NCBI GenBank assembly: GCA_030688365.1
Contig: JAUYIE010000004.1
Span: 5,931-69,930 of the forward strand
Direction of reading: 5' to 3'
DNA length: 64,000 nucleotides
Source: a bacterium
Lineage (GTDB): Bacteria; Patescibacteriota; Patescibacteriia; JACQRZ01
The translations under genes and the position numbers were made by a program. Of the stretch, positions 2,762 to 64,000 are shown piece after piece (the first letter of the stretch is position 1; the number at the start of each line of letters is the position of its first letter). Below the pieces are notes generated by a model, which did not search any database, was not told the origin of the DNA, and worked only from the letters and a program-made list of their open reading frames with translations.

Positions 2762-4276
2762 CTAATGAAAATTAATTAAAAAAGAAATTGCATTTGCTAT
2801 TCTTTCAAGTGTTTTTTCTTTACCTAATGCGTCAGCTATCTCAAATGGTCCGGGGCTATTCTGTTGTCCGCTCAATGCTACCCGTAGTGGCCATAAAACA
2901 GCACCATTTTTGAGTCCTTTATTGGTAATTTCAGTTTTAATGGCCATTTCAATAGAAGGTGTCGTAAAATCAGCATCTTTCATCTGTTTTATTATATCAC
3001 GTCCGAGTCCTAGCATTTCGCAAGTCTCTTCTTTGGATTTATCTTTCCATGATAACAAGTGCGGGTCATATTCCAATGTGTCAGTCAGACAAAATGCAAT
3101 ATGCGGCGGAATCTCGGAAAGGACTTTTGCTCTGTCTTGCTCAAGGGCAATATATTTTTCTAGCAAATCCCGCGATATAGTTTCCTTATTTGCATTGATA
3201 ACAAAGCTTGTTGCCTTCATTATATCATCTTTTGGTAATTCAAGATATCCTTGATCAAACAAGTGTGGAAGTACACGACTGGTGAGTTCATTAATTGGAA
3301 GCGCGCGAATGTAGTGACTATTTAACCATTGTAGTTTTTCAATATTAAAAATTGCTCCAGATTTTTGGACTCGTTCAAAACTAAATTGCTCAATAAGCTC
3401 GGGTAATGAAAAGATCTCCTGTTCGGTACCTGGATTCCATCCCAGTAGCGCCAAAAAATTTATCAATGCCTCCGGTAAATACCCTTCTGCACGGTAATCT
3501 AACAGTGAAACTTTATTTTTTCTTTTACTCATTTTTGATCTATCGGGATTGAGAATCAATGGAATATGAGCATATATCGGAGTAGAAAAACCAAGTGCTT
3601 TGATAAATAACACCTGTTTGGGAGTATTTGAGAGATGTTCTTCTCCACGGATTACATGAGTTATCTTCATCTCGTGATCGTCAATGACCACTGCAAGGCC
3701 GTACAGCGGTGTGTGCGTATCTTTTGCAACAACTACATCACCAATCAACGTGCCGTCAAATTCAACGCGACCACGAACAAGATCTTCAAAATGAATTTTT
3801 TCTGGCGGTATACGAAAACGAAGTACCGACGATGCACCACTTTCAATTCGTTTTTTTACCTCATCATCTGTCAAATGTGCACATGTTCCATTATAGATTT
3901 GTGGATTCTTATTTGATACATTCTGTTTTCGTTGAAATTCAAGCTCTTCTTCGGTACAAAAACAGTGGTAAAGTGATCTTTGATCGAGTAATTTCTGAAG
4001 ATACCGCTCATATATATCAGTTCTTTCACTTTGTCTATACGGAGCGTATTGTCCACCACAATCAGGTCCTTCATCCCAATCCATACCAAGCCACTTAAGT
4101 CCTTCCATGATATCATCCTCATATTCCTTTTTTGATCGTTCTTTGTCGGTGTCTTCAATCCTGCACACTACCACGCCGTTATTACGACGAGCAAATAAAA
4201 TATTTACGAGCACCGTACGGACTGTGCCAATATGAAGAAATCCGGTTGGCGATGGCGCAAAGCGTGCTCGTATCAT
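2762..4276 (-). CDS. gltX: Glutamyl-tRNA synthetase
   Basis: N-terminal RFAPSPTGFLHIG (HIGH motif) and KMSKRK (KMSKS motif). 504 aa. Confidence 0.9.
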   Translation of the reverse strand: MIRARFAPSPTGFLHIGTVRTVLVNILFARRNNGVVVCRIEDTDKERSKKEYEDDIMEGLKWLGMDWDEGPDCGGQYAPYRQSERTDIYERYLQKLLDQRSLYHCFCTEEELEFQRKQNVSNKNPQIYNGTCAHLTDDEVKKRIESGASSVLRFRIPPEKIHFEDLVRGRVEFDGTLIGDVVVAKDTHTPLYGLAVVIDDHEMKITHVIRGEEHLSNTPKQVLFIKALGFSTPIYAHIPLILNPDRSKMSKRKNKVSLLDYRAEGYLPEALINFLALLGWNPGTEQEIFSLPELIEQFSFERVQKSGAIFNIEKLQWLNSHYIRALPINELTSRVLPHLFDQGYLELPKDDIMKATSFVINANKETISRDLLEKYIALEQDRAKVLSEIPPHIAFCLTDTLEYDPHLLSWKDKSKEETCEMLGLGRDIIKQMKDADFTTPSIEMAIKTEITNKGLKNGAVLWPLRVALSGQQNSPGPFEIADALGKEKTLERIANAISFLINFH

Positions 4277-4329: not shown

Positions 4330-5475
4330 TTAAGGGGTTTGTATCGGATATCCACTATTGACATCTTGTAAACCACCGGCAGGCTGAAGATTGAGAGTAT
4401 CTAGCGATGAAGCAGGTTGATTATCTAAAGATGATGGTACTGTAGTATTCGATCCTTGAAGTATACGTTGTAAGTCATCTGCAGACGTGGGACAAATGTC
4501 AGGCGTAAACGTATATACTATCTTTGGAAGGAAGGTAAATAGACCATCTACGTTTAGTGCCGCATTTTGTGCAATAGGAAGCAATATTGATACCACCCCA
4601 CCTTTAAACAGATTTGCAAGGTTGGTTCTCGCTTGACATGTCAGTAGTGATGATATCCAAACAAATATTCCAATGACCAATCCGACTATGGCAAAAAATA
4701 TGAGTGAATGTTTTTCCCCTTTAAAATAATGAAATTCCTGATTACGTGGTAATGCTACCAAATCCTCATAACGAATATAATCAAATATTACGAAAAACGG
4801 AATTACGAGAATCATGTACGCCCCAAATAACAACGCAAACAAGACTCCACCTATTACAGGGACTGCAAGAAAAAGAAGGATAATAAGTGAAATGGCAAAA
4901 ATGATTCCCACAAGACCAACATAGCGTCCCAGAGTTGCAAACCAGACTCCACGGGTTATATAACGACTGTACGCGATTGCTTCAATACCTCGTTTTCCTT
5001 CTCCTACCAAAATATATACGCCAAAATACAGCCATACAACCATTAATATTGGTAAAACAATGGTAATAGAACTTCCATATGTTGCAAGACCACCAAGTAT
5101 ACTTATCCACAATAGCGATAAGTATACTGGTTTTGCTTGCTCAAGTGCTTGTTTGATTGTCAGAATTGATTCGTTTCTATGCTTTACTACATGTAGCATT
5201 GCGGTAAAAATCAATGCATATCCAAAATATGATGCAAATTGAATCAACGTGTTTATAACCTCAATAAAGGATTTTATTGTTTGCGATGAATGTAAAACGA
5301 GAAAATTCAATAACGACGTGAGCCCCAATGCGATCAAAAAAACAATTCCAATACATATACTCAAGGAGACCAGCGGACTCATCAATCGCTTATATGTTAC
5401 CCATGTTCGTCCGAGTAATGATCCCATCCCGGGAAGGTTCACAACCGGGACTGCTCCTGATGGCAGTTGTTCCAT
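4330..5475 (-). CDS. Polytopic membrane protein of unknown function
   Basis: 381 aa with many hydrophobic helices. Its stop is adjacent to the gltX start, suggesting an operon. Confidence 0.6.
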   Translation of the reverse strand: MEQLPSGAVPVVNLPGMGSLLGRTWVTYKRLMSPLVSLSICIGIVFLIALGLTSLLNFLVLHSSQTIKSFIEVINTLIQFASYFGYALIFTAMLHVVKHRNESILTIKQALEQAKPVYLSLLWISILGGLATYGSSITIVLPILMVVWLYFGVYILVGEGKRGIEAIAYSRYITRGVWFATLGRYVGLVGIIFAISLIILLFLAVPVIGGVLFALLFGAYMILVIPFFVIFDYIRYEDLVALPRNQEFHYFKGEKHSLIFFAIVGLVIGIFVWISSLLTCQARTNLANLFKGGVVSILLPIAQNAALNVDGLFTFLPKIVYTFTPDICPTSADDLQRILQGSNTTVPSSLDNQPASSLDTLNLQPAGGLQDVNSGYPIQTP

Positions 5476-46440: not shown

Positions 46441-47789
46441 GGCAATACTTGCAGAGTAAAAATACCATTATTTCCATCTTGAGTTCCTGCAATCAGGAGT
46501 GTTTTTTTATCCGACAACATACGAAGCGCTTCAACATGGTCAAATGTTGCGATGATATATCGATTGGAGGATGGATTATCACTGTTTTCAAGGGCAATGA
46601 TATCGTGTCCACGGCTTACAAAAAAAATATACGGTATAGTTGGTTCAATTGTCACATCGCTGATGCCGTCGCTCTCTCTGGTGATAAGATTTTTTGAAAC
46701 TGCATTTTTACTTATATAATATCTATTCATTTCAATATCATTATTTCCTACATAAGTATTCTCATCATATACCGTGACGTGAGTCATCTTCTCAAGATCT
46801 ACAATATGAGGTACTGCGTCGTGAGTATCATATATAAATGATGACCCATCAGATCCTTTAATAAGTAAATCACTGGCTGATACATCGCCAAATATCGCTT
46901 GTTTGACAGGAAGATGCGCACGACTCTGTGCAGGTGAGTTGCTTTGTCCCGTTGCAATCATATCCACTGAAACTCCGTTGGTATCGCGTGAGAGAAAATA
47001 TAGATTTGATCCGGAGACAACACAATCAAATACTTCTCTATCATGGACAACAATTTTTTGAGAAATATCCGGATGCACAATAATCCCCTTACCTCCACAA
47101 CTGTATAAAATACCGTGATTATCGAATGCCAAATGATCAGCAAGAGCGATATCAATGCGTACACTGGGTGCCAAAGGATTATTTACATCATATCGATACC
47201 AGGCCACATCATTTTGTACAAATATAAATGCACCGTCCGGAGAAATTTTTATATTGGCTATTTTTTTCTGTGTTAAATCTAGCGTAGTCAACGTGTCAGT
47301 TTTGATGTTCAAAAGTGACAATCCTTGAGATGTTGAGACAACAAAAGATGATTTATTCAATGGAATCATAGTATCAACTGCGGACACATCAGTAATACGA
47401 GAAGGGGAGCTTTGTTTTAATAATACTATGTCGTTAAAAAATGCGGTCTTACCAACTTGTACCTCAATATCACGTCTAAAATCAAAATAAGAGTCTTTAG
47501 ATAGGATGACATGATAAACACCAGGTAATACATAGGTAATACGCTGTGGTGTTTTAAATGGTTTACGAGGTAAAACACTTCGTTGCCAAAAAGAACCAGT
47601 TGTTGCAGTACCCAATGAGATACTCGCCCCTGAAGGATCTGATGATGCATAGATCACACCTGTTTTTTCAAACCATCCAGAGTCTATGTTGAAACGATAC
47701 CCATTTGCGTACAACAAAAGTCCTATTGCACTAATAGCAAATGATAAAGCAAAGATAGAAAAAATGATTCGACGAATCCACAACCGCAT
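46437..47789 (-). CDS. Membrane-anchored hypothetical protein (beta-propeller-like)
   Basis: 450 aa. N-terminal TM. No recognisable catalytic motif. Confidence 0.5.
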   Translation of the reverse strand: MRLWIRRIIFSIFALSFAISAIGLLLYANGYRFNIDSGWFEKTGVIYASSDPSGASISLGTATTGSFWQRSVLPRKPFKTPQRITYVLPGVYHVILSKDSYFDFRRDIEVQVGKTAFFNDIVLLKQSSPSRITDVSAVDTMIPLNKSSFVVSTSQGLSLLNIKTDTLTTLDLTQKKIANIKISPDGAFIFVQNDVAWYRYDVNNPLAPSVRIDIALADHLAFDNHGILYSCGGKGIIVHPDISQKIVVHDREVFDCVVSGSNLYFLSRDTNGVSVDMIATGQSNSPAQSRAHLPVKQAIFGDVSASDLLIKGSDGSSFIYDTHDAVPHIVDLEKMTHVTVYDENTYVGNNDIEMNRYYISKNAVSKNLITRESDGISDVTIEPTIPYIFFVSRGHDIIALENSDNPSSNRYIIATFDHVEALRMLSDKKTLLIAGTQDGNNGIFTLQVLP

Positions 47790-52197: not shown

Positions 52198-52617
52198 TTA
52201 TACATCCTTTGGTTCGACACGTCTTACCTTTAACTTTTCAAACTCCTTGTCGTAAGATACCACCACGCCATTCTTGATTTCAAGTACCTGCGCGGCTATC
52301 AAAGTGTCAATGAATTTAACTGAATTCCCTTGATACAATTCGAGAGCTTGGAAAAAATCTCCCCCGTCTTTTATGCTCAAATACGACATTGCCACGATAC
52401 CTCCCAATAATTCAACAACATCTTCTTTTTTGAGTTTGTAGAAACTCAAACATGTCCACACAAACTCTGCCAATACGAGTTTGGAGGTGGTTGCTCGAAG
52501 TGTCCCTTCCTGTATGCGCTCGAATAGTCTTTCACAGTCTTTCGCCATCGCTACGTCATCTTTGACGACAAACCGAAGAAAGATATTGGTGTCAAGGAAG
52601 TATCTATTTCCTTGCAT
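52198..52617 (-). CDS. vapC: PIN-domain toxin VapC
   Basis: FLDTNIF N-terminus and conserved acidic residues of the PIN fold. Overlaps the vapB stop. Confidence 0.85.
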   Translation of the reverse strand: MQGNRYFLDTNIFLRFVVKDDVAMAKDCERLFERIQEGTLRATTSKLVLAEFVWTCLSFYKLKKEDVVELLGGIVAMSYLSIKDGGDFFQALELYQGNSVKFIDTLIAAQVLEIKNGVVVSYDKEFEKLKVRRVEPKDV

Positions 52618-52843
52618 ATTTTTTCTCCATACTTGCCCGTGCTTTGAGCGGATTGGTGCGTTTTTTAGGAGTAATGCGACGACCGGACGAAACGAAGTTA
52701 TTCAAGGGAATGAGACGCGCTGCCTTGTTCCCTTTTTCAATCTGCACAGCTACGCGACTATTTTTTCCTAAACGAAGCATATCCCTGATTTCTTTAGGGA
52801 TCGTAATCTGCCCTTTTTGTGTAACGGTGGTATGGTAAGGCAT
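52604..52843 (-). CDS. vapB: AbrB/SpoVT-type antitoxin VapB
   Basis: QKGQITIPKEIRDMLRL swapped-hairpin motif. 14-nt overlap with vapC. Confidence 0.8.
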   Translation of the reverse strand: MPYHTTVTQKGQITIPKEIRDMLRLGKNSRVAVQIEKGNKAARLIPLNNFVSSGRRITPKKRTNPLKARASMEKKYARK

Positions 52844-52979: not shown

Positions 52980-53984
52980 TTACCCTGTCTCATCCAGTAG
53001 CCAATGATCGTTGAGTATACTTGTCCTTATTTTGTGGGTATTCCCATGTGATAACAGTCCGAGATATGACTGAAGCGTCGCTTCGTTAGAATCATGAGAC
53101 AACTTTTTGAACATTCGCCGTCTTGTTGTCGCCCGCAGTACATGATGATCGGCAAAGTGCACCCAGCCCAAATAATCTACCCCTGACGCAATGGTACGAA
53201 TGCTGACTTTATTGGGATGCAATGAAAGCTTGAGCTTGTCTGATAAAAAATCCTGTATCGGATCAATAGTGCGCTCGAGTATACTTCTATCCTGTGACAA
53301 CAGAACAAAATCATCGGCATATCGGATATAATGTGGCACTCGCATATCGTGCTTGATGTATTGGTCAAATAAATTCATGTATATATTGGCAAACAGTTGC
53401 GATGTAAGATTCCCCAATGGAAGTCCTTTATCACTAGACGATTTAAAACTCCCGATTATTCTTGAAAGCAACCACAATATCTTTCTGTCAGGGATATAAT
53501 CCTCCAATATACAATATAAAACGGCATGATCTATGCTCGCAAAGAATTTTCGTATATCACATTTGAGAACGTAACATGTACGAGTATTGTTCCTGCTTAC
53601 CTTGCACGAGTAAGATGTAAATCGATCCATTGCGCTGTGAGTACCTTTGCCCACACGAGCTGAAAATGAATCAGCGATAAACTTTGTTTCAAAAAAAGGA
53701 TATAATATACGGTGAAGAGCGTGATGTACCACCCGATCGCGCACCTGCGCCTTGTGGATTTCCCGTGATTTTGGATCATTGATATAAAAACGTGTATACG
53801 CGCCATGCATGTACTCACCTGACAATAGCTCCTCATGCAACGCATTGATGTTTTCAAACAGATGATCTCGAAACGCGCGGACATCCCACTTGTTCCGTTT
53901 CCCACATTCAAACTCGAGCCACGCTTCAATCAAATTGTCGTGCGAAATAATATCTTCAAATGTATGTCCCAACAATATTTTCAT
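52980..53984 (-). CDS. Diversity-generating retroelement reverse transcriptase (DGR RT1)
   Basis: RT domains 1-7, with the DGR-specific LPLGNLTSQ (GxxxSQ) replacing the group II intron QGxxxSP, plus YIRYADDFV. 334 aa. A cognate TR/VR pair lies nearby. Confidence 0.9.
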   Translation of the reverse strand: MKILLGHTFEDIISHDNLIEAWLEFECGKRNKWDVRAFRDHLFENINALHEELLSGEYMHGAYTRFYINDPKSREIHKAQVRDRVVHHALHRILYPFFETKFIADSFSARVGKGTHSAMDRFTSYSCKVSRNNTRTCYVLKCDIRKFFASIDHAVLYCILEDYIPDRKILWLLSRIIGSFKSSSDKGLPLGNLTSQLFANIYMNLFDQYIKHDMRVPHYIRYADDFVLLSQDRSILERTIDPIQDFLSDKLKLSLHPNKVSIRTIASGVDYLGWVHFADHHVLRATTRRRMFKKLSHDSNEATLQSYLGLLSHGNTHKIRTSILNDHWLLDETG

Positions 53985-54002: not shown

Positions 54003-54010
54003 CCCCCCCC
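54003..54010. repeat. Poly-C homopolymer (8 nt) in the divergent RT1-avd1 intergenic region
   Basis: cccccccc read directly. The equivalent tract in DGR2 is 10 nt. Confidence 0.9.
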
Positions 54011-54031: not shown

Positions 54032-54388
54032 TTGCAAAAAGCCGTAGAAACATACAAACTATGGCATTTGTTCTTACAGCAGATGCCTCGTCTTACTCGA
54101 TTTAGTCTTGGTACAAAAATCGACATATTGTTTACCGACACGTTACAGCTCATGCTCTCTGCGAAATACGCACCACGAGAACAAAAGCTGGAATACATAC
54201 GAACATTGTGCACCAACATAGATGCCATCAAATTCTTTTTGCAAATCGCGTTTGAGCTCAAGGCATTAAGCGCTAAAAAATATTCCAGTGTGTCCATACC
54301 TCTGGAAGAGATCGGAAAAATGGTCGGCGGGTGGAAAAAACAGCTGGAAAAAGAAAATCCTGCCACAAAAACTTCATGGCAGGAATGA
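54032..54388 (+). CDS. avd: Avd-like accessory variability determinant (four-helix-bundle protein, TIGR02436-like), predicted TTG start
   Basis: About 118 aa helical protein with C-terminal IPLEEIGKMVGGWKKQL, matching the Avd/23S-IVS four-helix-bundle family. Paralog at 62879-63295. Adjacent to RT and TR. Confidence 0.8.
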   Translation: MQKAVETYKLWHLFLQQMPRLTRFSLGTKIDILFTDTLQLMLSAKYAPREQKLEYIRTLCTNIDAIKFFLQIAFELKALSAKKYSSVSIPLEEIGKMVGGWKKQLEKENPATKTSWQE

Positions 54389-54399
54389 TACGAGAGAGT

Positions 54400-54523
54400 T
54401 GCTCGAACGCAAGGAAACGATAGTTGTCATTCCAATCACCAGCCAGCTTGTTGAGGTTGAGCTTACGCTTGTCGTTGTTCCTGTTCAACACAGGAGCACA
54501 CAGATCACCGTTCTCATTGCGAA
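54400..54523 (-). repeat. DGR1 template repeat (TR1), 124 bp
   Basis: Aligns base-for-base (offset +499) with 54899-55022. All 20 mismatches are T in TR on the plus strand (A on the minus strand) versus C/G/A in VR. Confidence 0.85.
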
Positions 54524-54876: not shown

Positions 54877-55518
54877 CTAAGTGCCTTCCGAAGAAACCTG
54901 CTCGAACGCAAGGAAACGATAGTTGCCACTCCAATCACCAGCCAGCCCGTGGAGGCCGAGCAACCGCCAGTCGTTGAGCCCGTCCAACACAGGAGCACAC
55001 AGAACACCGCGCCCATCGCGAATTTCAATACCCATCAAACAAACGATTGGATATTTTAATTGTTCATCGGGGTTGTTTATGGCGTACTGTAATATTCTGG
55101 CAGGAGTAGCCTTGATCAAACCTTTTTCTTCGATCTTTTTTTCTGCATCTTCAGTCGAAATTTTTCCCAGATCAAGGATACGGACTTTTAACATTTCTAC
55201 ACCGACAGCTGGATCTATCGGAAACGTTTTTTCATTGATGTGACTGTTTACATAATAAAAATTTACGATTTTGATTTGATCGGAAAAACTCTTGTTGTTA
55301 TCAACTATTATGAGTCCAGAATTATCAACTTTCTTCGAAATTTCATTCAATGAACCGACAATAATTTGAGCAACCTTTTTCCTGCGGTCTGTGTCTTTCA
55401 AATACGCGTCTATGTGGTCATCTGTACCACCTTCATCCAGAATATCATTAAAGATAATTTTCACTACCTCAAAGATCTTTCCGAACAGTTTCAGATAACC
55501 ACTTGTTTTTTTAGCCAT
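54877..55518 (-). CDS. DGR1 variable (target) protein, 213 aa, no signal peptide; VR encodes the C-terminal roughly 41 aa
   Basis: Full ORF. The C-terminus IRDGRGVLCAPVLDGLNDWRLLGLHGLAGDWSGNYRFLAFEQ corresponds to the TR-encoded NENGDLCAPVLNRNNDKRKLNLNKLAGDWNDNYRFLAFEQ. Confidence 0.85.
   Translation of the reverse strand: MAKKTSGYLKLFGKIFEVVKIIFNDILDEGGTDDHIDAYLKDTDRRKKVAQIIVGSLNEISKKVDNSGLIIVDNNKSFSDQIKIVNFYYVNSHINEKTFPIDPAVGVEMLKVRILDLGKISTEDAEKKIEEKGLIKATPARILQYAINNPDEQLKYPIVCLMGIEIRDGRGVLCAPVLDGLNDWRLLGLHGLAGDWSGNYRFLAFEQVSSEGT
54899..55022 (-). repeat. DGR1 variable repeat (VR1)
   Basis: See TR1. The 3' end (low coordinate) has a 26-nt invariant block (putative IMH) ending 22 nt before the stop codon. 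Confidence 0.85.
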
Positions 55519-55724: not shown

Positions 55725-55842
55725 TTGATTTCTCTTTTAAAAATTTTATGAGCGAGTCAAGTGTTGGGAAGAAAAGTTGAAACGAGCGAATAGAAGTGAG
55801 GAGGGAGACTTACCTACTCGTTACCACCACCGTCGCCGAACG
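55725..55842. mobile_element. MITE-like element, copy 1: 118 bp with perfect 19-bp terminal inverted repeats (TTGATTTCTCTTTTAAAAA)
   Basis: Left TIR 55725-55743, right TIR 55824-55842 (exact reverse complement). The core is about 80 percent identical to the reverse complement of the core at 61784-61883. Confidence 0.7.
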
Positions 55843-55891
55843 CTTTTTAAAAGAGAAATCAAATACCCCGCTCAAGCAGGACAAACACTCC

Positions 55892-56656: not shown

Positions 56657-58831
56657 TTATTCTTCCTGTTTCTCGGGAGTGGGTTCGCCATCAGCACCTG
56701 TAGGTTTTTCCCATGACGCGTAGGTGCACTCCGGATATTTATCGCATCCATAAAACATCTTACCGCGTTTTGTTTTCTTTTCTACAACCTGACCTTTACC
56801 ACAATCGGGACATACGATACCCAGTTTTTTCAAACTCAATGAGCGGATGCTTTTGCATTCAGGATATTTACTGCATCCCAAAAACTTCCCAAACCGTCCT
56901 GTCTTGATGACCATCGGCGCTCCGCACTTATCACACGGTTCCGCTTCTTCAATCGCTTTCTTATCTTCCTCTTGTTCTTCTTTGGATTCAATCGGCTTGG
57001 TATTTTTACATTCCGGATAGCCGGTGCAAGCAAAAAATCTTCCAAAGCGACCAATCTTACTCACCATCGGCTTACCGCATTTATCACATACTTCATCGCT
57101 CACCTCTTCCGTGAGTTCCTTTTTTGAGAGCTCTTTATCTTTTTCTCCGAGTAATTTTTTGAACGGGGTATAAAACTCGCGAATGACCGGTACCCAATCC
57201 TTTTTACCATTTGCGACTTCATCGAGATCATCTTCCATGCGAGCGGTAAACTCGTAATCCACGATCTGTGGAAAATGCTCCATCAAAATATCATTCACCA
57301 GCGTTGCCATTTCTGTCGGCTTAAGGCGTCCTTCTTCTTTGATGACATATTTGCGCTCCACGATCGTGCTGATCGTCGGTGCATAGGTGGATGGACGACC
57401 AACACCATGTTCTTCAAGTACTTTGACCAGCCCTGCTTCACTGTATCGTGCAGGTGGTTTGGTAAAATGCTGCTCTGGATCAAATTTTAAAAGATCAAGG
57501 GCGTCATCTTTCTTCACAGCTGGAAGCAGTACTTCTTCTCTATCGGTCTGATACACGCGGGTAAATCCATCAAATTTTTCAATCTGACCGGTAGCACGAA
57601 AAACATACCCGGTAGACTTCTTACTTTTGAGAGTATCAATATCAATCGTCGTCGCTTCATATAGCGCATCCGGCATCTGACTCGCCACACTGCGTCGCCA
57701 TATCAGGTCATAAAGCTTGAATTGAGCGTCAGTGAGGTGTGCTTTCACTGATTCAGGTGTTCGCGACACGAGAGTCGGTCTTATGGCCTCATGTGCCTCT
57801 TGAGCGAGCTTGGATTTTGTCGCATATTTCTTTTCTCCTTTAGCATACTGTGTACCGTATTCAGATTTGATCACTTCTTGTGCTTCAGACAAAAACTTCT
57901 CGGAAAGGTTTACCGAGTCAGTACGCATATAGGTGATATATCCACCATCTTCTTCCGAACCTGCTTCAATACCTTCATAGAGTTGTTGAGCAAACATCAT
58001 GGTCTGCTTTGGTGAAAATCGTAAGCGACGGTTTGCGTCTTGTTGCAACGTAGAGGTAGTAAACGGCGTTGGCGGTTTGCGTGACGTATCTTTCATCGTG
58101 ACTTCTTTGACTGTGTAGTCCGCGCTTTCCAATTTTTTTAAAATATCTTGTGCATCTTTTTCATTTGAAATCTCAAACTTATCAAGCGTCTTTCCATCAT
58201 AGGCGTGCAAACTCGCATGAAATGAAACCGTGGTCTTGTCAGCAACATCAATCTCAATAGTCCAATATTCTTGCGGTACAAACGCTTCTATTTCCTTTTC
58301 ACGTTCCACAACCAACCGCACGGCGACGGATTGCACGCGTCCGGCGGATAGACCTTTGGCTACCTTCCTCCACAAAAATGGCGAGAGTTCATATCCCACC
58401 AGACGATCAAGCACACGACGCGCTTGTTGCGCATCTACCAAATCAAGATTTATCTGGCCTGCGTGTTCCAAGGCATCCATGACTGCCGTCTTTGTAATTT
58501 CATGAAATGCAATACGCTTGATCTTATCTTTTGGTACTTTCAAAATCTCTTGCAAATGCCATGAAATAGCTTCCCCTTCACGGTCTTGATCAGTTGCGAA
58601 ATAGACATCATCAGACGCTTTGGCAAGTTTCTTCAACTCGGTCGCGCGTTTTTGATTTGCTTTGGGGATAACATAATGCGGGGCGAAATCATGTTCAATA
58701 TCTACCCCCATCTCGCTTTTTGGAAGATCGCGAATATGACCAAAAGAAGACTCCACGCGGTAGTCTTTGCCTAAAAATTTGCTGATTGTTTTTGCTTTCG
58801 TTGGAGACTCAACGATGACCAAATGTTTCAT
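56657..58831 (-). CDS. topA: DNA topoisomerase I
   Basis: Toprim N-terminus (LVIVESPTKAK). Catalytic Tyr region. Three C-terminal C4 zinc ribbons. Confidence 0.95.
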   Translation of the reverse strand: MKHLVIVESPTKAKTISKFLGKDYRVESSFGHIRDLPKSEMGVDIEHDFAPHYVIPKANQKRATELKKLAKASDDVYFATDQDREGEAISWHLQEILKVPKDKIKRIAFHEITKTAVMDALEHAGQINLDLVDAQQARRVLDRLVGYELSPFLWRKVAKGLSAGRVQSVAVRLVVEREKEIEAFVPQEYWTIEIDVADKTTVSFHASLHAYDGKTLDKFEISNEKDAQDILKKLESADYTVKEVTMKDTSRKPPTPFTTSTLQQDANRRLRFSPKQTMMFAQQLYEGIEAGSEEDGGYITYMRTDSVNLSEKFLSEAQEVIKSEYGTQYAKGEKKYATKSKLAQEAHEAIRPTLVSRTPESVKAHLTDAQFKLYDLIWRRSVASQMPDALYEATTIDIDTLKSKKSTGYVFRATGQIEKFDGFTRVYQTDREEVLLPAVKKDDALDLLKFDPEQHFTKPPARYSEAGLVKVLEEHGVGRPSTYAPTISTIVERKYVIKEEGRLKPTEMATLVNDILMEHFPQIVDYEFTARMEDDLDEVANGKKDWVPVIREFYTPFKKLLGEKDKELSKKELTEEVSDEVCDKCGKPMVSKIGRFGRFFACTGYPECKNTKPIESKEEQEEDKKAIEEAEPCDKCGAPMVIKTGRFGKFLGCSKYPECKSIRSLSLKKLGIVCPDCGKGQVVEKKTKRGKMFYGCDKYPECTYASWEKPTGADGEPTPEKQEE

Positions 58832-61694: not shown

Positions 61695-61764
61695 ATACGA
61701 GCATTAAAGCATGAAATTGGGAGAAAAGCGAGAGGAAAGAGGTGGTGTATCTCGAGCAGGGTAT

Positions 61765-61902
61765 TTGGTTCTTCTTTTAAAAAGCGTTCGGCAACGGTAC
61801 TGGTAATGAGTGTGTTAATCTCCCTCCTCACTTCTATTCGCTCATCTCAATATTTTCATCGTACATTTGACTCGCTCATAAAATTTTTAAAAGAAGAACC
61901 AA
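61765..61902. mobile_element. MITE-like element, copy 2: 138 bp with perfect 19-bp TIRs (TTGGTTCTTCTTTTAAAAA), inverted relative to copy 1 and overlapping the RT2 3' end
   Basis: Left TIR 61765-61783, right TIR 61884-61902. The last 15 codons of the RT2 ORF (FGSSFKNFMSESNVR) are encoded by element sequence. Confidence 0.7.
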
Positions 61903-62899
61903 ATACCTGCCATCTTACGTCACTCAAACCCCGTCTTATCTTCGCAGTGTTCCCGTGACTCAATAATCCCATATATGACTGCATTTGAGCAGGATCATTC
62001 TTTCCTGCTTTGATATGACGGAACATCCTCTTTTTTGTCGCTGTCCTCAACACTCGATGATCAGGAAAATGTACCCAACCGAGGAAATCAACACCCGATG
62101 AAAATGTTTTGAGAAAAAGCTTGTTGGGATGAAGCTGAAGATGTAGCCGTGAAGATAGAAACTCCTGAATCATCGGGACGAGTGTCTCTAACCATTCTAT
62201 GTCAGATGACAATACCACAAAATCATCAGCGTAACGTATGTAATACCGAGTGTGGGCGGTATGTTTCATAAACTGATCCAATTCATTCATATACACGTTG
62301 GCAAACACCTGTGATGTAAGATTGCCCAGTGGTAAACCGACACCGCGATGAGTCGTATGGAAACTACCGATGATGCGATACAAAAGATCAACAATCCGAG
62401 AATCGGGTATTGATAATTTCAATATATCAATAAGTACCTCATGCGATATAGACGCAAAAAACTTGCATATATCGCACTTGAGTGCCCATGCGGTACGAGT
62501 ATGATTCCTTGAAACGACATATTCCATAGAACGGAATCGATCAAGCGCTTTATGCGTTCCCTTTCCATCTCTGCATGAATACGAATCATGAATAAACCGC
62601 GTATCAACATACGGATACAATATACGATAAATTGCGCGATGGAGTACTCTGTCACGCACCGACGCCTTATGTATCTCCCGTGGTTTTGGATCATTGATGC
62701 GAAACGCCTGGTATGCACCGTGTCTGTATCTATTGGTCGCAAGGTCATGATGCAGTATAATAAGATTACTCATGAGATTCTGCTCAAATTCAATAACATC
62801 ACTGCGACAGGATTTTCCTATACGAAATTCTCGCCATGCCTCAAGGAGATTCTCAAGAGAAATAATATCTTCATACGTATGAATGAATTTTCCGGACAT
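61856..62899 (-). CDS. Diversity-generating retroelement reverse transcriptase (DGR RT2), paralog of RT1 with an element-derived C-terminal tail
   Basis: LPLGNLTSQVFANVYM and YIRYADDFV motifs. About 60 percent identity to RT1 across the full length. Confidence 0.9.
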   Translation of the reverse strand: MSGKFIHTYEDIISLENLLEAWREFRIGKSCRSDVIEFEQNLMSNLIILHHDLATNRYRHGAYQAFRINDPKPREIHKASVRDRVLHRAIYRILYPYVDTRFIHDSYSCRDGKGTHKALDRFRSMEYVVSRNHTRTAWALKCDICKFFASISHEVLIDILKLSIPDSRIVDLLYRIIGSFHTTHRGVGLPLGNLTSQVFANVYMNELDQFMKHTAHTRYYIRYADDFVVLSSDIEWLETLVPMIQEFLSSRLHLQLHPNKLFLKTFSSGVDFLGWVHFPDHRVLRTATKKRMFRHIKAGKNDPAQMQSYMGLLSHGNTAKIRRGLSDVRWQVFGSSFKNFMSESNVR

Positions 62900-63295
62900 A
62901 TCACTAATGTTACCCCCCCCCCGAGGCTTTTACCAGTCCTGCAAAAGATAAAGTCAGTATATATCCTCTGGCATGGATATTATCAGGTACTGCCAAAAAC
63001 TCATCGTTACAGTATTGGGCTTCGCATTGATACTTTATTCGTAGAGCTCATTGAAGCCACCTCCATAGCAGGATTCCTCTCTCGTGAAGAAAAACAACCA
63101 CTCGTGCGCATCGCTATCAGAAAAAATGACACCATAAAAATCTTTCTCATGGTGCTCTGGGAAACAGGATCACTAGAAACAAAACGATATGTCACACTTT
63201 CACTACCCCTAGAAGAAATCGGCAGAATGTTGGGCGGATGGAACGGACAACTACAAAAACAAAACTCTCCCGTCATTGCGAGGGGAGAGAAATGA
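62879..63295 (+). CDS. avd: Avd-like accessory protein (paralog of avd1), start uncertain (ATG 62879 overlapping the RT2 start on the other strand, or CTG 62939)
   Basis: C-terminal LPLEEIGRMLGGWNGQLQKQN aligns with avd1 IPLEEIGKMVGGWKKQLEKEN. N-terminal (L)QKIKSVYILWH aligns with avd1 (L)QKAVETYKLWH. Confidence 0.7.
   Translation: MNEFSGHITNVTPPPRLLPVLQKIKSVYILWHGYYQVLPKTHRYSIGLRIDTLFVELIEATSIAGFLSREEKQPLVRIAIRKNDTIKIFLMVLWETGSLETKRYVTLSLPLEEIGRMLGGWNGQLQKQNSPVIARGEK
62913..62922. repeat. Poly-C homopolymer (10 nt) between the RT2 start and the avd2 core
   Basis: cccccccccc read directly. Lies inside the avd2 ORF if translation starts at ATG 62879, and upstream of it if translation starts at CTG 62939. 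Confidence 0.9.
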
Positions 63296-63301
63296 AGAGA
63301 G

Positions 63302-63436
63302 TTGCGACGGGCAAACAACAAGCGATTGTCGGGATTGAGCATGTTGTCGGGATGAATGTAGTTCGTGTTGAGCCAGAACTCACCATCGTTGAAATTCACG
63401 TTGAACACGTTGGGATCGCCATCGGAGTCCGTAATG
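63302..63436 (-). repeat. DGR2 template repeat (TR2), about 135 bp, starting 7 nt after the avd2 stop
   Basis: Aligns at offset +498 with 63800-63934. 15 of 16 mismatches before the ragged 5' end are T in TR (plus strand) versus N in VR. Confidence 0.8.
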
Positions 63437-63515
63437 TATACCATGCCATCTGTGCCACTGCCTTATGATTACTCACAAAGCTGTATCGAATCTGCGATCA
63501 ATAATCGCCCAGCAT

Positions 63516-63742: not shown

Positions 63743-63795
63743 CTTCGCGAGCAAGTAACAAAGTGCAGAAGAGTTAATCCTCCAAAAACTAAGAG

Positions 63796-64000
63796 CTACT
63801 TGCGACGGGCAAACAACACGCGAGCGTCGGGATCGAGCATGCGGTCGGGATGAATGTAGTCCGCGTAGAGCCAGAACTCACCACCGTCGAAATGCACGTT
63901 GAACACGTCGGGAGCGCCAGCGGAGTCCGTAATGGTATCCATGGCGAGAATAGCCCAGTTTCTGTCGTCTTTTTCTGCTTTTTTCAAAACGACTTCTATT
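63796..64000 (-). CDS. DGR2 variable (target) protein, C-terminal part only; the ORF is open to the window edge and VR2 encodes the last roughly 45 aa
   Basis: C-terminus ITDSAGAPDVFNVHFDGGEFWLYADYIHPDRMLDPDARVLFARRK matches the TR2-encoded ITDSDGDPNVFNVNFNDGEFWLNTNYIHPDNMLNPDNRLLFARRN. Stop TAG at 63796-63798. Confidence 0.7.
   Translation of the reverse strand, partial: IEVVLKKAEKDDRNWAILAMDTITDSAGAPDVFNVHFDGGEFWLYADYIHPDRMLDPDARVLFARRK
63800..63934 (-). repeat. DGR2 variable repeat (VR2)
   Basis: See TR2. Asn (AAC/AAT) codons in TR correspond to D/H/Y/A/R codons in VR. Confidence 0.8.

Follow-up and report, generated by a model that had tools for sequence, protein, structure and literature searches.

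A candidate hypermutable switch at the start of avd in the diversity-generating retroelements of a Patescibacteria genome and its relatives

Why should a tract of ten C residues stand exactly between two divergent genes of a retroelement? The question is raised by a 64-kb stretch of a Patescibacteria genome (contig JAUYIE010000004.1 of assembly GCA_030688365.1, positions 5,931 to 69,930; hereafter the window), which harbours two diversity-generating retroelement (DGR) cassettes, DGR1 and DGR2, each with a reverse transcriptase (RT) gene and an inverted accessory gene, avd. The tract (C10, 62913-62922 on the plus strand, which reads as G10 on the RT strand) lies at the RT/avd junction of DGR2, and the first-pass annotation had placed it at a position equivalent to that of a C tract in DGR1, which the sequence confirms. 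Comparison with related loci supports the view that the C tract is coding in the avd orientation, and the C10 probably represents a hypermutable contingency locus in the 5' coding region of avd, by which production of Avd phase-varies. This reading draws on the position, conservation and length polymorphism of the repeat among relatives, on selection for an antisense ATG, on the open frame on both sides of the repeat and on a random phase found together with an intact avd, all established by sequence comparison.

According to the proposed mechanism, translation of avd would start at ATG 62879, the reverse complement of the RT His7 codon; the ribosome would pass the repeat, read as Pro-Pro-Pro in a disordered tail, and then enter the four-helix Avd core from L-L-P-V-L-Q-K onwards. 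Slipped-strand mispairing during replication would alter the repeat length and hence the reading frame, some tract lengths would yield Avd and others none, and the ON or OFF state of Avd would gate the targeted mutagenesis of the variable repeat (VR), stochastically and reversibly across the population. That such switching takes place within populations we infer from comparative data, and that the loss of Avd would stop this DGR is carried over from the Bordetella phage system. The features of the two cassettes are the following.

62913-62922, plus strand: C10 simple sequence repeat (SSR) of DGR2, encoding the prolines of T-P-P-P-R, residues 12-16 of Avd2 (138 aa)
62879-63295, plus strand: avd2 open reading frame (ORF), 138 aa and stop, start ATG 62879-62881, Pfam bAvd, in frame at C10
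61856-62899, minus strand: RT2, DGR reverse transcriptase of 347 aa, Pfam RVT_1 with E = 2e-23
63290-63447, minus (RT) strand: TR2, the template repeat (TR) of DGR2, from the TR/VR alignment with 17 A-to-N differences
63786-63945, minus strand: VR2, 3' end of target gene 2, whose ORF ends at 63796 and is cut by the window end
54003-54010, plus strand: C8 SSR of DGR1, at the position equivalent to C10
53964-54047, plus strand: ATG-led ORF of DGR1, its ATG antisense to the His7 codon of RT1; it passes C8 and stops after 27 aa
54032-54388, plus strand: body of avd1, Pfam bAvd with E = 9e-13, first canonical in-frame start TTG 54032
52980-53984, minus strand: RT1, 334 aa, Pfam RVT_1
54393-54523, minus strand: TR1, with 21 A-to-N differences from VR1
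54892-55022, minus strand: VR1, occupying the last ~45 codons, at the 3' end, of target gene 1 (54877-55518, minus strand)

Both cassettes are DGRs, in which an RT with an RVT_1 domain stands beside a TR/VR pair, the differences are biased towards A-to-N and the VR occupies the 3' end of the target. In DGR1 the A-to-N differences are accompanied by only 3 others, in DGR2 the remaining ones fall mostly at the alignment ends, and VR2 finishes at the stop of its target ORF. C8 and C10 are the only runs of seven or more C in the window (41% G+C), which contains no G run of that length, and dinucleotide-preserving shuffles give an expectation of 0.32 +/- 0.72 C8 matches per window with both strands counted. 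Each tract sits at the equivalent position between a minus-strand RT and a plus-strand avd that diverge from it, and the avd1 frame is open from 53999 on, through the C8 tract. The two RTs are 58% identical and the two Avds 41%, therefore DGR1 and DGR2 are old paralogs; the co-placement of C8 and C10 in two such diverged cassettes is far beyond chance.

Relatives were collected with both RTs. A scan of species-representative genomes provided 80 loci out of at least 584 matching stretches, nearly all of them from Patescibacteria and with RTs 56-63% identical, and a second scan provided 80 metagenome loci out of at least 549 matches. The comparative set comprises 149 loci including the upstream flank, from independent assemblies and studies. 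The divergent RT/avd pair is present in all 149, and an SSR is found at the junction in 144 of them. In 132 loci this is a poly-C/G run of 6-16 with a mode of 9-10; among the 130 loci where a homopolymer is the top-scoring repeat, 39 have G9 and 43 have G10 on the RT strand, the remaining two being L098 (G9 beside (TTG)n) and L149 (C9G9). Other junction repeats, given in RT orientation, are (CTGG)n and (GT)n in three loci each, (TGATTGC)n in two, and (TGGCGGC)n, (TTGG)n, (ATTG)n and a short (GAG)n in a single locus each. In avd orientation they include (CCAG)n, (CAAT)n, (GCAATCA)n and (AC)n, and in L096 the (CAAT)n follows right behind ATG GTG. The units are 1, 2, 4 or 7 nt long, with the exception of L045, where a 10-nt (GAG)n lies beside a C5 run, and in eight loci the repeat extends over 37-78 nt. 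As many as 122 of the 131 G/C runs of at least 8 in 737 kb of the relatives are located at the junction, and six more at junctions cut by contig ends. Differing repeat sequences thus occupy one site, which argues that repetitiveness itself is selected; on this comparative evidence the junction repeat is selected as a repeat and its position is conserved. The L149 junction is, on the avd strand, a palindromic double homopolymer of C9 followed by G9 that encodes PPPGGG.

Repeat number varies among close relatives much faster than the flanks do, which by sequence comparison marks the tract as hypermutable. Six pairs of loci have 600-nt flanks that are at least 99% identical, and in two of these pairs the tracts differ. 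L138 and L140, from the same aquifer well of the Hainich groundwater series, show no flank mismatch in 600 nt and a net tract difference of one base, one being in frame and the other out of frame; L122 and L127, with one mismatch in 600 nt, carry C9 and C8-A-CC, respectively. With shared flanks, (CTGG)n measures 41 nt in L064, 37 nt in L082 and 45 nt in L106. The (GT)n repeat is 11 nt long in L053 and 33 nt in L063, and the heptamer repeat 78 nt in L056 and 57 nt in L131, a three-unit difference that keeps the frame. The exact Avd2 protein occurs in one further assembly, a Logan contig, which is identical and also has C10, and an identical contig is present in SRR13727534; no record matches RT1, RT2 or the TTG-started Avd1 exactly, and an exact-flank pattern with a variable gap had no match among metagenome contigs.

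Homopolymers are error-prone in sequencing and several contigs break at the tract, both of which could speak for a run arisen by chance or at a neutral mutational hotspot, or for an error of assembly or sequencing. Such an origin is hardly credible. Given the 0.32 C8 matches expected per window, the SSR at the same site in loci from independent assemblies and studies, the C10 of the independent Logan assembly and the signals of selection on both flanks of the repeat, it is effectively refuted by the comparative data. As for the broken contigs, L119 and L111 begin at (position 1) or within 14 nt of (position 14) the poly-G upstream of RT, and in L039, L109, L113 and L136 the G run is ~65 nt from a contig end; these ends fit assembly breaks at a heterogeneous or hard-to-sequence run.

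Where, then, does translation of avd begin? On the upstream side of the repeat, the conserved N-terminal His of the RTs (His7 in RT2) has the codon CAT in 116 loci and CAC in one, whereas the remaining His residues of these RTs use CAT 989 times and CAC 770 times (56% CAT). CAT reversed is ATG on the avd strand, that is, ATG 62879 in DGR2 and ATG 53964 in DGR1, and the codon counts support synonymous-site selection for this antisense ATG. Its frame is open up to the SSR in 113 of 113 loci, compared with 13 and 18 for the control frames over the same stretch. In a test confined to the 5' untranslated region (UTR) of RT, where RT coding cannot be the cause, the ATG frame contains no stop in 379 codons, as against 25 in 363 and 65 in 309 for the other frames, while after shuffling of the UTRs a stop turns up in 26 of 93 loci on average and in no fewer than 11. 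Read in avd orientation, no SSR unit contains a stop; in RT orientation (TGATTGC)n and (ATTG)n do, namely TGA. As had been observed earlier, the avd2 ORF from ATG 62879 runs antisense across the RT2 start codon (62899-62897), and the 5' ends of the two genes overlap by 21 nt.

On the downstream side, codon coordinates were anchored on the Leu of the conserved L-Q-K, and the repeat commonly ends 16-18 nt upstream of it. Between the repeat and the Avd core, stops are found in the avd frame in 0 of 143 loci and in the other frames in 36 and 19; when only the region upstream of codon -9 is considered, no stop occurs in 527 codons of the avd frame, compared with 9 in 421 and 6 in 475 for the others. 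Codon periodicity and synonymous variation reach at least codon -12, with conserved second and free third positions. All four Pro codons are used at codon -6, and the Leu at codon -9 is TTG in 52, TTA in 28 and CTN in 38 loci. Taken together, the two sides show that selection keeps both the ATG-led ORF into the repeat and the avd frame out of it.

The first-pass annotation had weighed two starts for avd2. One was ATG 62879, with the tract coding (TPPP) and a slip of +/-1 frameshifting avd, and it is now backed by the selected antisense ATG, the open ORF, the avd-frame signals and the annotation of the 138-aa product at the National Center for Biotechnology Information (NCBI). The other was CTG 62939, with the tract in the 5' leader. 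This codon is indeed homologous to TTG 54032 of avd1, and the flank similarity AGGC..CC..TGCAAAA between the two DGRs is real, consisting mostly of the conserved Avd codons L-L-P-V-L-Q-K. A start at CTG 62939 is unsupported, as is the idea that the DGR1 tract is merely a 5' leader, the ORF from 53964 entering C8 one base out of the avd1 frame. The combination of a conserved downstream start with a good ribosome-binding site and an invariant tract, named beforehand as a refutation of the coding tract, is not what the relatives display: no ATG, GTG or TTG lies between SSR and core in 60 of 144 loci (42%), and the tract lengths range from 6 to 16.

In its general form, the second alternative holds that the repeat is non-coding, that avd starts at the TTG or CTG of L-L-P-V-L-Q-K, and that the tract tunes transcription from a shared leader/promoter, for example as the spacer of an RT promoter. 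The enrichment of TTG at two Leu codons past the tract, quantified below, is in its favour. We regard it as unlikely, for it leaves unexplained the 116:1 preference for CAT at His7, the antisense frame open in every one of the 113 loci and the stop-free UTR frame, and it has to deal with the 42% of loci that lack a canonical downstream start and with the 66 loci in which Leu -9 is TTA or CTN.

If avd is read from the antisense ATG, its frame should reveal whether Avd is made constitutively. In-frame enrichment, the sign of constitutive coding, was not seen: relative to avd, the His7 ATG is in frame in 29 loci and out of frame in 43 and 41 (n = 113), a uniform distribution, and for any ATG reading into the repeat the three phases number 58, 63 and 67, with 58 of 144 loci possessing an in-frame ATG. 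For want of such enrichment, the interpretation as a switch was adopted. In-frame loci would give proteins of 120-154 aa and out-of-frame loci peptides of 17-59 aa; the avd body is intact, with 100-129 codons, in 82 of 82 loci devoid of an in-frame upstream ATG. All five SSR-less loci have an in-frame ATG, as opposed to 58 of the 144 with an SSR (one-sided Fisher p ~0.012), and two of them, L009 and L112, use the His7 ATG with the usual N-terminus M-N-x-x-x-x-(x)-H. Random phase and a preserved gene therefore constitute the pattern of a contingency locus, the phase being randomised by fast mutation.

When the tract length is varied in a simulation, DGR2 gives full-length Avd from ATG 62879 with C10 and from ATG 62883 or 62907 with C8 or C11; C9 and C12 give none. 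The last two starts are listed as one further feature.

62883-62885 and 62907-62909 (the latter in ATG TTA C(n)), plus strand: alternative ATGs in the second frame, giving full-length Avd at C8/C11

The earlier statement that ATG 62879 (frame through the tract: MNEFSGHITNVTPPPRLLPVLQK) is the sole in-frame ATG is thus correct at C10 and has to be amended for C8 and C11, where 62883 and 62907, which read into the tract as well, would be in frame. DGR1 gives full-length Avd at C6, C9 and C12 only, its C8 ORF from ATG 53964 ending at 54047. Judged from these frames, DGR2 at C10 looks ON and DGR1 at C8 looks OFF, one base from ON; TTG 54032 may serve as a low-level start for DGR1.

The same phase data can be read in another way, namely that the tract is coding and that RNA polymerase slippage, or +1 ribosomal slippage on CCC-C, restores the frame; Avd would then be made at any length and the polymorphism would be near-neutral. 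It is general knowledge that long homopolymers are RNA polymerase slippage sites and that CCC-C is a +1 frameshift-prone site for tRNA-Pro, and slippage would account both for the random phase next to an avd that is intact in each of the 82 loci lacking an in-frame upstream ATG and for a DGR1 VR diversified in the OFF phase. Even so, this explanation appears quite improbable. Tetra-, hepta- and dinucleotide repeats stand in 11 loci, some of them out of frame with intact avd (L020, L053, L106), and we know of no transcriptional or ribosomal slippage on units of this kind. The exchange of the homopolymer for other unstable repeats points to selection for mutability at the DNA level, and bacterial RNA polymerase generally slips less on G/C than on A/T runs. 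The non-homopolymer repeats at the site speak for DNA-level change as the general mechanism.

A number of points nevertheless weigh against a phase-variable coding repeat. In-frame states are unenriched (29 of 113 for the His7 ATG, 58 of 144 for any ATG), and the majority assembled state is usually OFF, which is also expected of a non-functional upstream ORF. The VR of DGR1 is diversified despite its OFF phase, and slippage on the homopolymer could be a source of Avd in out-of-phase alleles. TTG is enriched at Leu codon -9, where it makes up 36% as compared with 17% of the Leu codons in the avd body, and also at position 0, the site of TTG 54032, codon -9 being upstream of 54032; because of this enrichment at two downstream Leu codons, about half of the loci may have a repeat-independent start. 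Whether a locus has a downstream TTG is unrelated to its phase (52%, 56% and 63%). Tract heterogeneity within populations is extrapolated from differences between assemblies, and the essentiality of Avd in this clade from the Bordetella phage system. Finally, the homopolymer is C on the avd strand everywhere except in the C9G9 locus L149, a bias that may stem from common descent or from a role of the G run, beside a -10-like box, on the RT strand.

For avd2, an identical 138-aa product is annotated by NCBI (P0001), and precomputed PF22296 matches exist for all 120 listed Avd homologs, P0001 included. Against the bAvd profile (PF22296) itself, avd1 scores 49.0 bits, over the 40-bit cut-off, and avd2 36.2 bits (E = 9e-9), just under it. 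The AlphaFold2 (AF2) model of Avd2 is a four-helix bundle with a predicted local distance difference test score (pLDDT) of 84, preceded by disordered residues 1-16, and with Foldseek it matches the Avd chains of 4DWL and 8UB7 at a TM-score of 0.82-0.88 (target-length normalised) and a probability of 1.00. The proline run falls within this 16-residue disordered tail ahead of helix 1, hence tract changes of 3 nt would be tolerated. Among the best 120 Avd homologs in the protein collection, 102 begin with M...PP(P)(P)...LLPVLQK; two classes of N-terminus are seen, a long one with M-x5-H-x4-5-PPP and a short one with M-x-PPPP, and homologs with M-L-PPP(P)-R-LLP are also on record. The N-terminal peptide of Avd2 expected from the ATG 62879 start is MNEFSGHITNVTPPPR..., and a non-repetitive in-frame counterpart of the C tract would be CCACCTCCG.

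In phage BPP-1, Avd is a pentamer that binds RT and is needed for cDNA synthesis, for which the Bordetella phage system requires both Avd and RT. That Avd2 is likewise an RT-binding pentamer needed for cDNA is assumed here from homology and from its adjacency to RT in all 149 loci. The resemblance to the BPP-1 Avd/bRT structures (4DWL, 8UB7) consists in the Pfam bAvd match and in a predicted four-helix bundle that superposes on the Avd chains. Avd2 differs in its low identity (~15%), in the inversion of avd relative to TR and RT, and in the repeat-encoded, proline-bearing disordered tail of 16 residues.

Could the repeat act on transcription as well? The family consensus on the avd strand is TGATATCNT-N7-ATG, i.e. 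T-G-A-T-A-T-C-N-T, 7 nt and the ATG, which by its sequence is an extended -10 element (TGn-TAnnnT). Two of the consensus bases are synonymous third positions of the RT codons D11 and I12, each with a strong bias. At Asp11, 68 of 113 loci have GAT, and the third position of this codon is T in 101 and C in 1 (Asp elsewhere in the RTs is 60% GAT and 40% GAC), and Ile12 is ATC in 83 and ATT in 19, ATC accounting for 31% of Ile elsewhere. For RT, a TAnnnT motif begins at -13 of the start codon on the RT strand in 32 of 103 loci, and in many of these it follows the G run immediately. The corresponding boxes of the window are as follows.

62866-62871, plus strand: putative avd2 -10 box TATCTT, 7 nt upstream of ATG 62879
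53951-53956, plus strand: putative DGR1 -10 box TATCTT, followed by N7 and ATG 53964
62907-62912, minus strand: putative RT2 -10 box TAACAT, directly 3' of G10 and 7 nt before the RT2 ATG

A Shine-Dalgarno (SD)-like motif precedes only 7 of the 46 window ORFs of at least 150 aa, and TATAAT-like boxes stand 6-11 nt before the ATG of several, among them topA at 58831 and the ORF that starts at 47789. These observations point to initiation that is mostly SD-less or leaderless in this organism. SD motifs being rare in the genome, the start of Avd needs none, and with -10 boxes so close to the ATGs the avd and RT mRNAs may lack leaders and overlap by 21 nt at their 5' ends; we infer from these sequence features that both would be transcribed from -10-only promoters. 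The G run was also considered as an SD sequence of RT and was rejected, its spacing being mostly 13 nt and SD use in the genome as low as stated.

Promoter-type repeat switching is known from the poly-G/C tracts in the porA, opc and fetA promoters of Neisseria meningitidis and from (TA)n between hifA and hifB in Haemophilus influenzae. The C-stretch of the Bordetella fim promoters belongs to the same group (PMC1891110). The avd junction resembles these in having a G/C run of ~9-13 between divergent genes that often abuts the RT -10-like box, and differs from them in its avd coding signals, in repeats of 37-78 nt and in having neither a -35 partner nor length compensation. What a non-coding, promoter-tuning repeat can claim on this side is the TAnnnT box 13 nt before the RT ATG, in DGR2 as elsewhere often right after the G run, the suitability of runs of 8-11 for a promoter spacer of 16-19 nt, and an unrelated gene of L001. 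There, at 3390-3430, a textbook TTGCCA-N8-G10-TATAAT-N6-ATG precedes a signal-peptide-like ORF just downstream of RT and looks like the promoter-spacer homopolymer of an apparently leaderless gene. The long (CTGG)n, (TGATTGC)n and (ATTG)n repeats of 37-78 nt, however, are impossible as promoter spacers. Tract length is not compensated by the distance to the avd codons (rho = -0.05), and a two-hexamer scan found no canonical -35/-10 pair across the tract in either DGR of the window and no canonical -35 partner for the putative RT2 -10 box. A promoter spacer with its -35 in the avd L-L-P-V codons was accordingly dropped as the main explanation, given the missing length correlation and the missing spanning hexamer pair. 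A secondary effect of the tract on RT transcription is possible and could be added on top of the frameshift switch.

Such an effect would turn the phase-variable avd into something wider. One hypermutable repeat would be common to two overlapping, divergent and apparently leaderless genes, setting the avd frame and at the same time forming the upstream element of the RT -10, so that each length would correspond to a joint Avd/RT state of a multi-state stochastic switch with the mutator ON in a subpopulation. We put this forward tentatively and consider it rather doubtful. The logic may extend to other genes of these genomes that are preceded by poly-G. In L001 a second G10 (5225-5300) comes after the hairpin CCCCTCGCG-TTTT-CGCGAGGGG and precedes TGATAT-N6-ATG of another Avd-like ORF (MAQYQHLPIYSATFRLLK...); poly-G beside -10-like boxes may be a wider habit of these genomes.

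The 3' end of TR2 (63290, minus strand) adjoins the avd2 stop codon 63293-63295, therefore a TR transcript running on to RT would be antisense to the entire avd mRNA. The counterpart in DGR2 of the priming-spacer region of the Bordetella phage DGR would be antisense avd. One might suppose that the G run acts as RNA in a long TR-(antisense avd)-RT transcript, through RT-Avd binding, structure or RT translation, the avd-side ORF being incidental. TR and RT do share a strand with avd antisense between them, as in architecture B3 (PMC5758913), the G is on that strand in all loci but L149, and most commonly the run is placed 13 nt ahead of the RT ATG. This explanation is nonetheless very unlikely, as unrelated repeats, among them the G-poor (TGATTGC)n and (ATTG)n, replace the run, its length is not conserved, Rfam gives no credible RNA family over either RT/avd junction of the window, and the selected antisense ATG and open frame would go unexplained.

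Among known systems, a phase-variable avd is closest to translational SSR phase variation, as described for poly-G in hmbR and hpuA of Neisseria meningitidis (PMC3786947), for the poly-G/C genes of Campylobacter (PMC8355987) and for (CAAT)n in the lic genes of Haemophilus influenzae (PMC2651432), the last unit being the one that avd of L096 uses. As in those loci, the avd repeat lies a few codons past the start and, apart from (GAG)n of L045, consists of units that are not multiples of three; close relatives differ in copy number, the gene stays intact in ON and OFF states alike, and more than one ATG frame is present upstream of the repeat. Unlike them, avd is the accessory gene of a retroelement that itself makes targeted hypervariation, rather than a surface or restriction-modification gene, its hosts are uncultivated Patescibacteria, and its start codon is antisense inside the partner gene. 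Hypermutable, frameshift-prone repeats have also been described as bet-hedging contingency loci in genes of phages T2 and T4 (bioRxiv 10.1101/2025.10.21.683753); as the abstract of that work presents them, they share with avd a location in a mobile or accessory genetic system and are without a link to retroelements.

The cassette architecture is equally familiar. TR-(avd)-RT is architecture B3, reported for 90% of the DGRs of the Candidate Phyla Radiation (CPR; Wu et al. 2018, PMC5758913), and it corresponds to DGR clade 2 (Roux et al. 2021, PMC8144416). The window agrees with B3 in the order and strands of target/VR, TR, inverted avd and RT, in the A-to-N differences and in its Patescibacteria host. 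In the main texts of both papers, the avd-RT junction is not connected with a homopolymer, a repeat, slippage or phase variation, and an avd start embedded antisense is not mentioned either. Within the full-text literature searched, no work linked DGRs, Avd or Patescibacteria with homopolymers, SSRs, phase variation or frameshift (Paul et al. 2017, Nat Microbiol, falls outside this scope). SSR phase variation and the B3 architecture are thus each known, and what would be new is a DGR clade with a built-in hypermutable switch in avd, the start codon of which lies antisense within RT.

A functional gene should pay a high cost for mutagenesis that goes unrestrained, and to our knowledge the regulation of DGR activity is largely unknown. 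If the proposed reading is true, a very large DGR clade (B3, dominant in the CPR) carries a stochastic genetic on/off switch in an essential accessory gene, the first principle of regulation to be put forward for such DGRs. It would explain why many B3 DGRs look inactive in a given sample, and it would mean that avd of this clade is systematically mis-annotated, i.e. truncated or missed, when the tract is out of phase. It would in addition provide evidence for contingency loci in Patescibacteria, of which no earlier report was found in literature searches. Synonymous-site bias, as used here at His7, offers a way to detect an antisense-embedded start codon.

Two further observations concern the surroundings of the cassettes. 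A ~146-nt element is present in two copies that are 85% identical, one (55725-55870, plus strand) just outside target gene 1 of DGR1 and the other (61760-61905, minus strand) just 3' of RT2; it ends in 24-nt perfect terminal inverted repeats, GGTATTTGGTTCTTCTTTTAAAAA ... TTTTTAAAAGAAGAACCAAATACC, has no match in Rfam, and by its sequence looks like a miniature inverted-repeat transposable element (MITE) or a long-hairpin RNA. Just outside RT1 (52198-52843, minus strand), two overlapping small ORFs of 139 aa (52198-52617) and 79 aa (52604-52843), judged by eye, look like a PIN-type toxin and an AbrB/SpoVT-type antitoxin.

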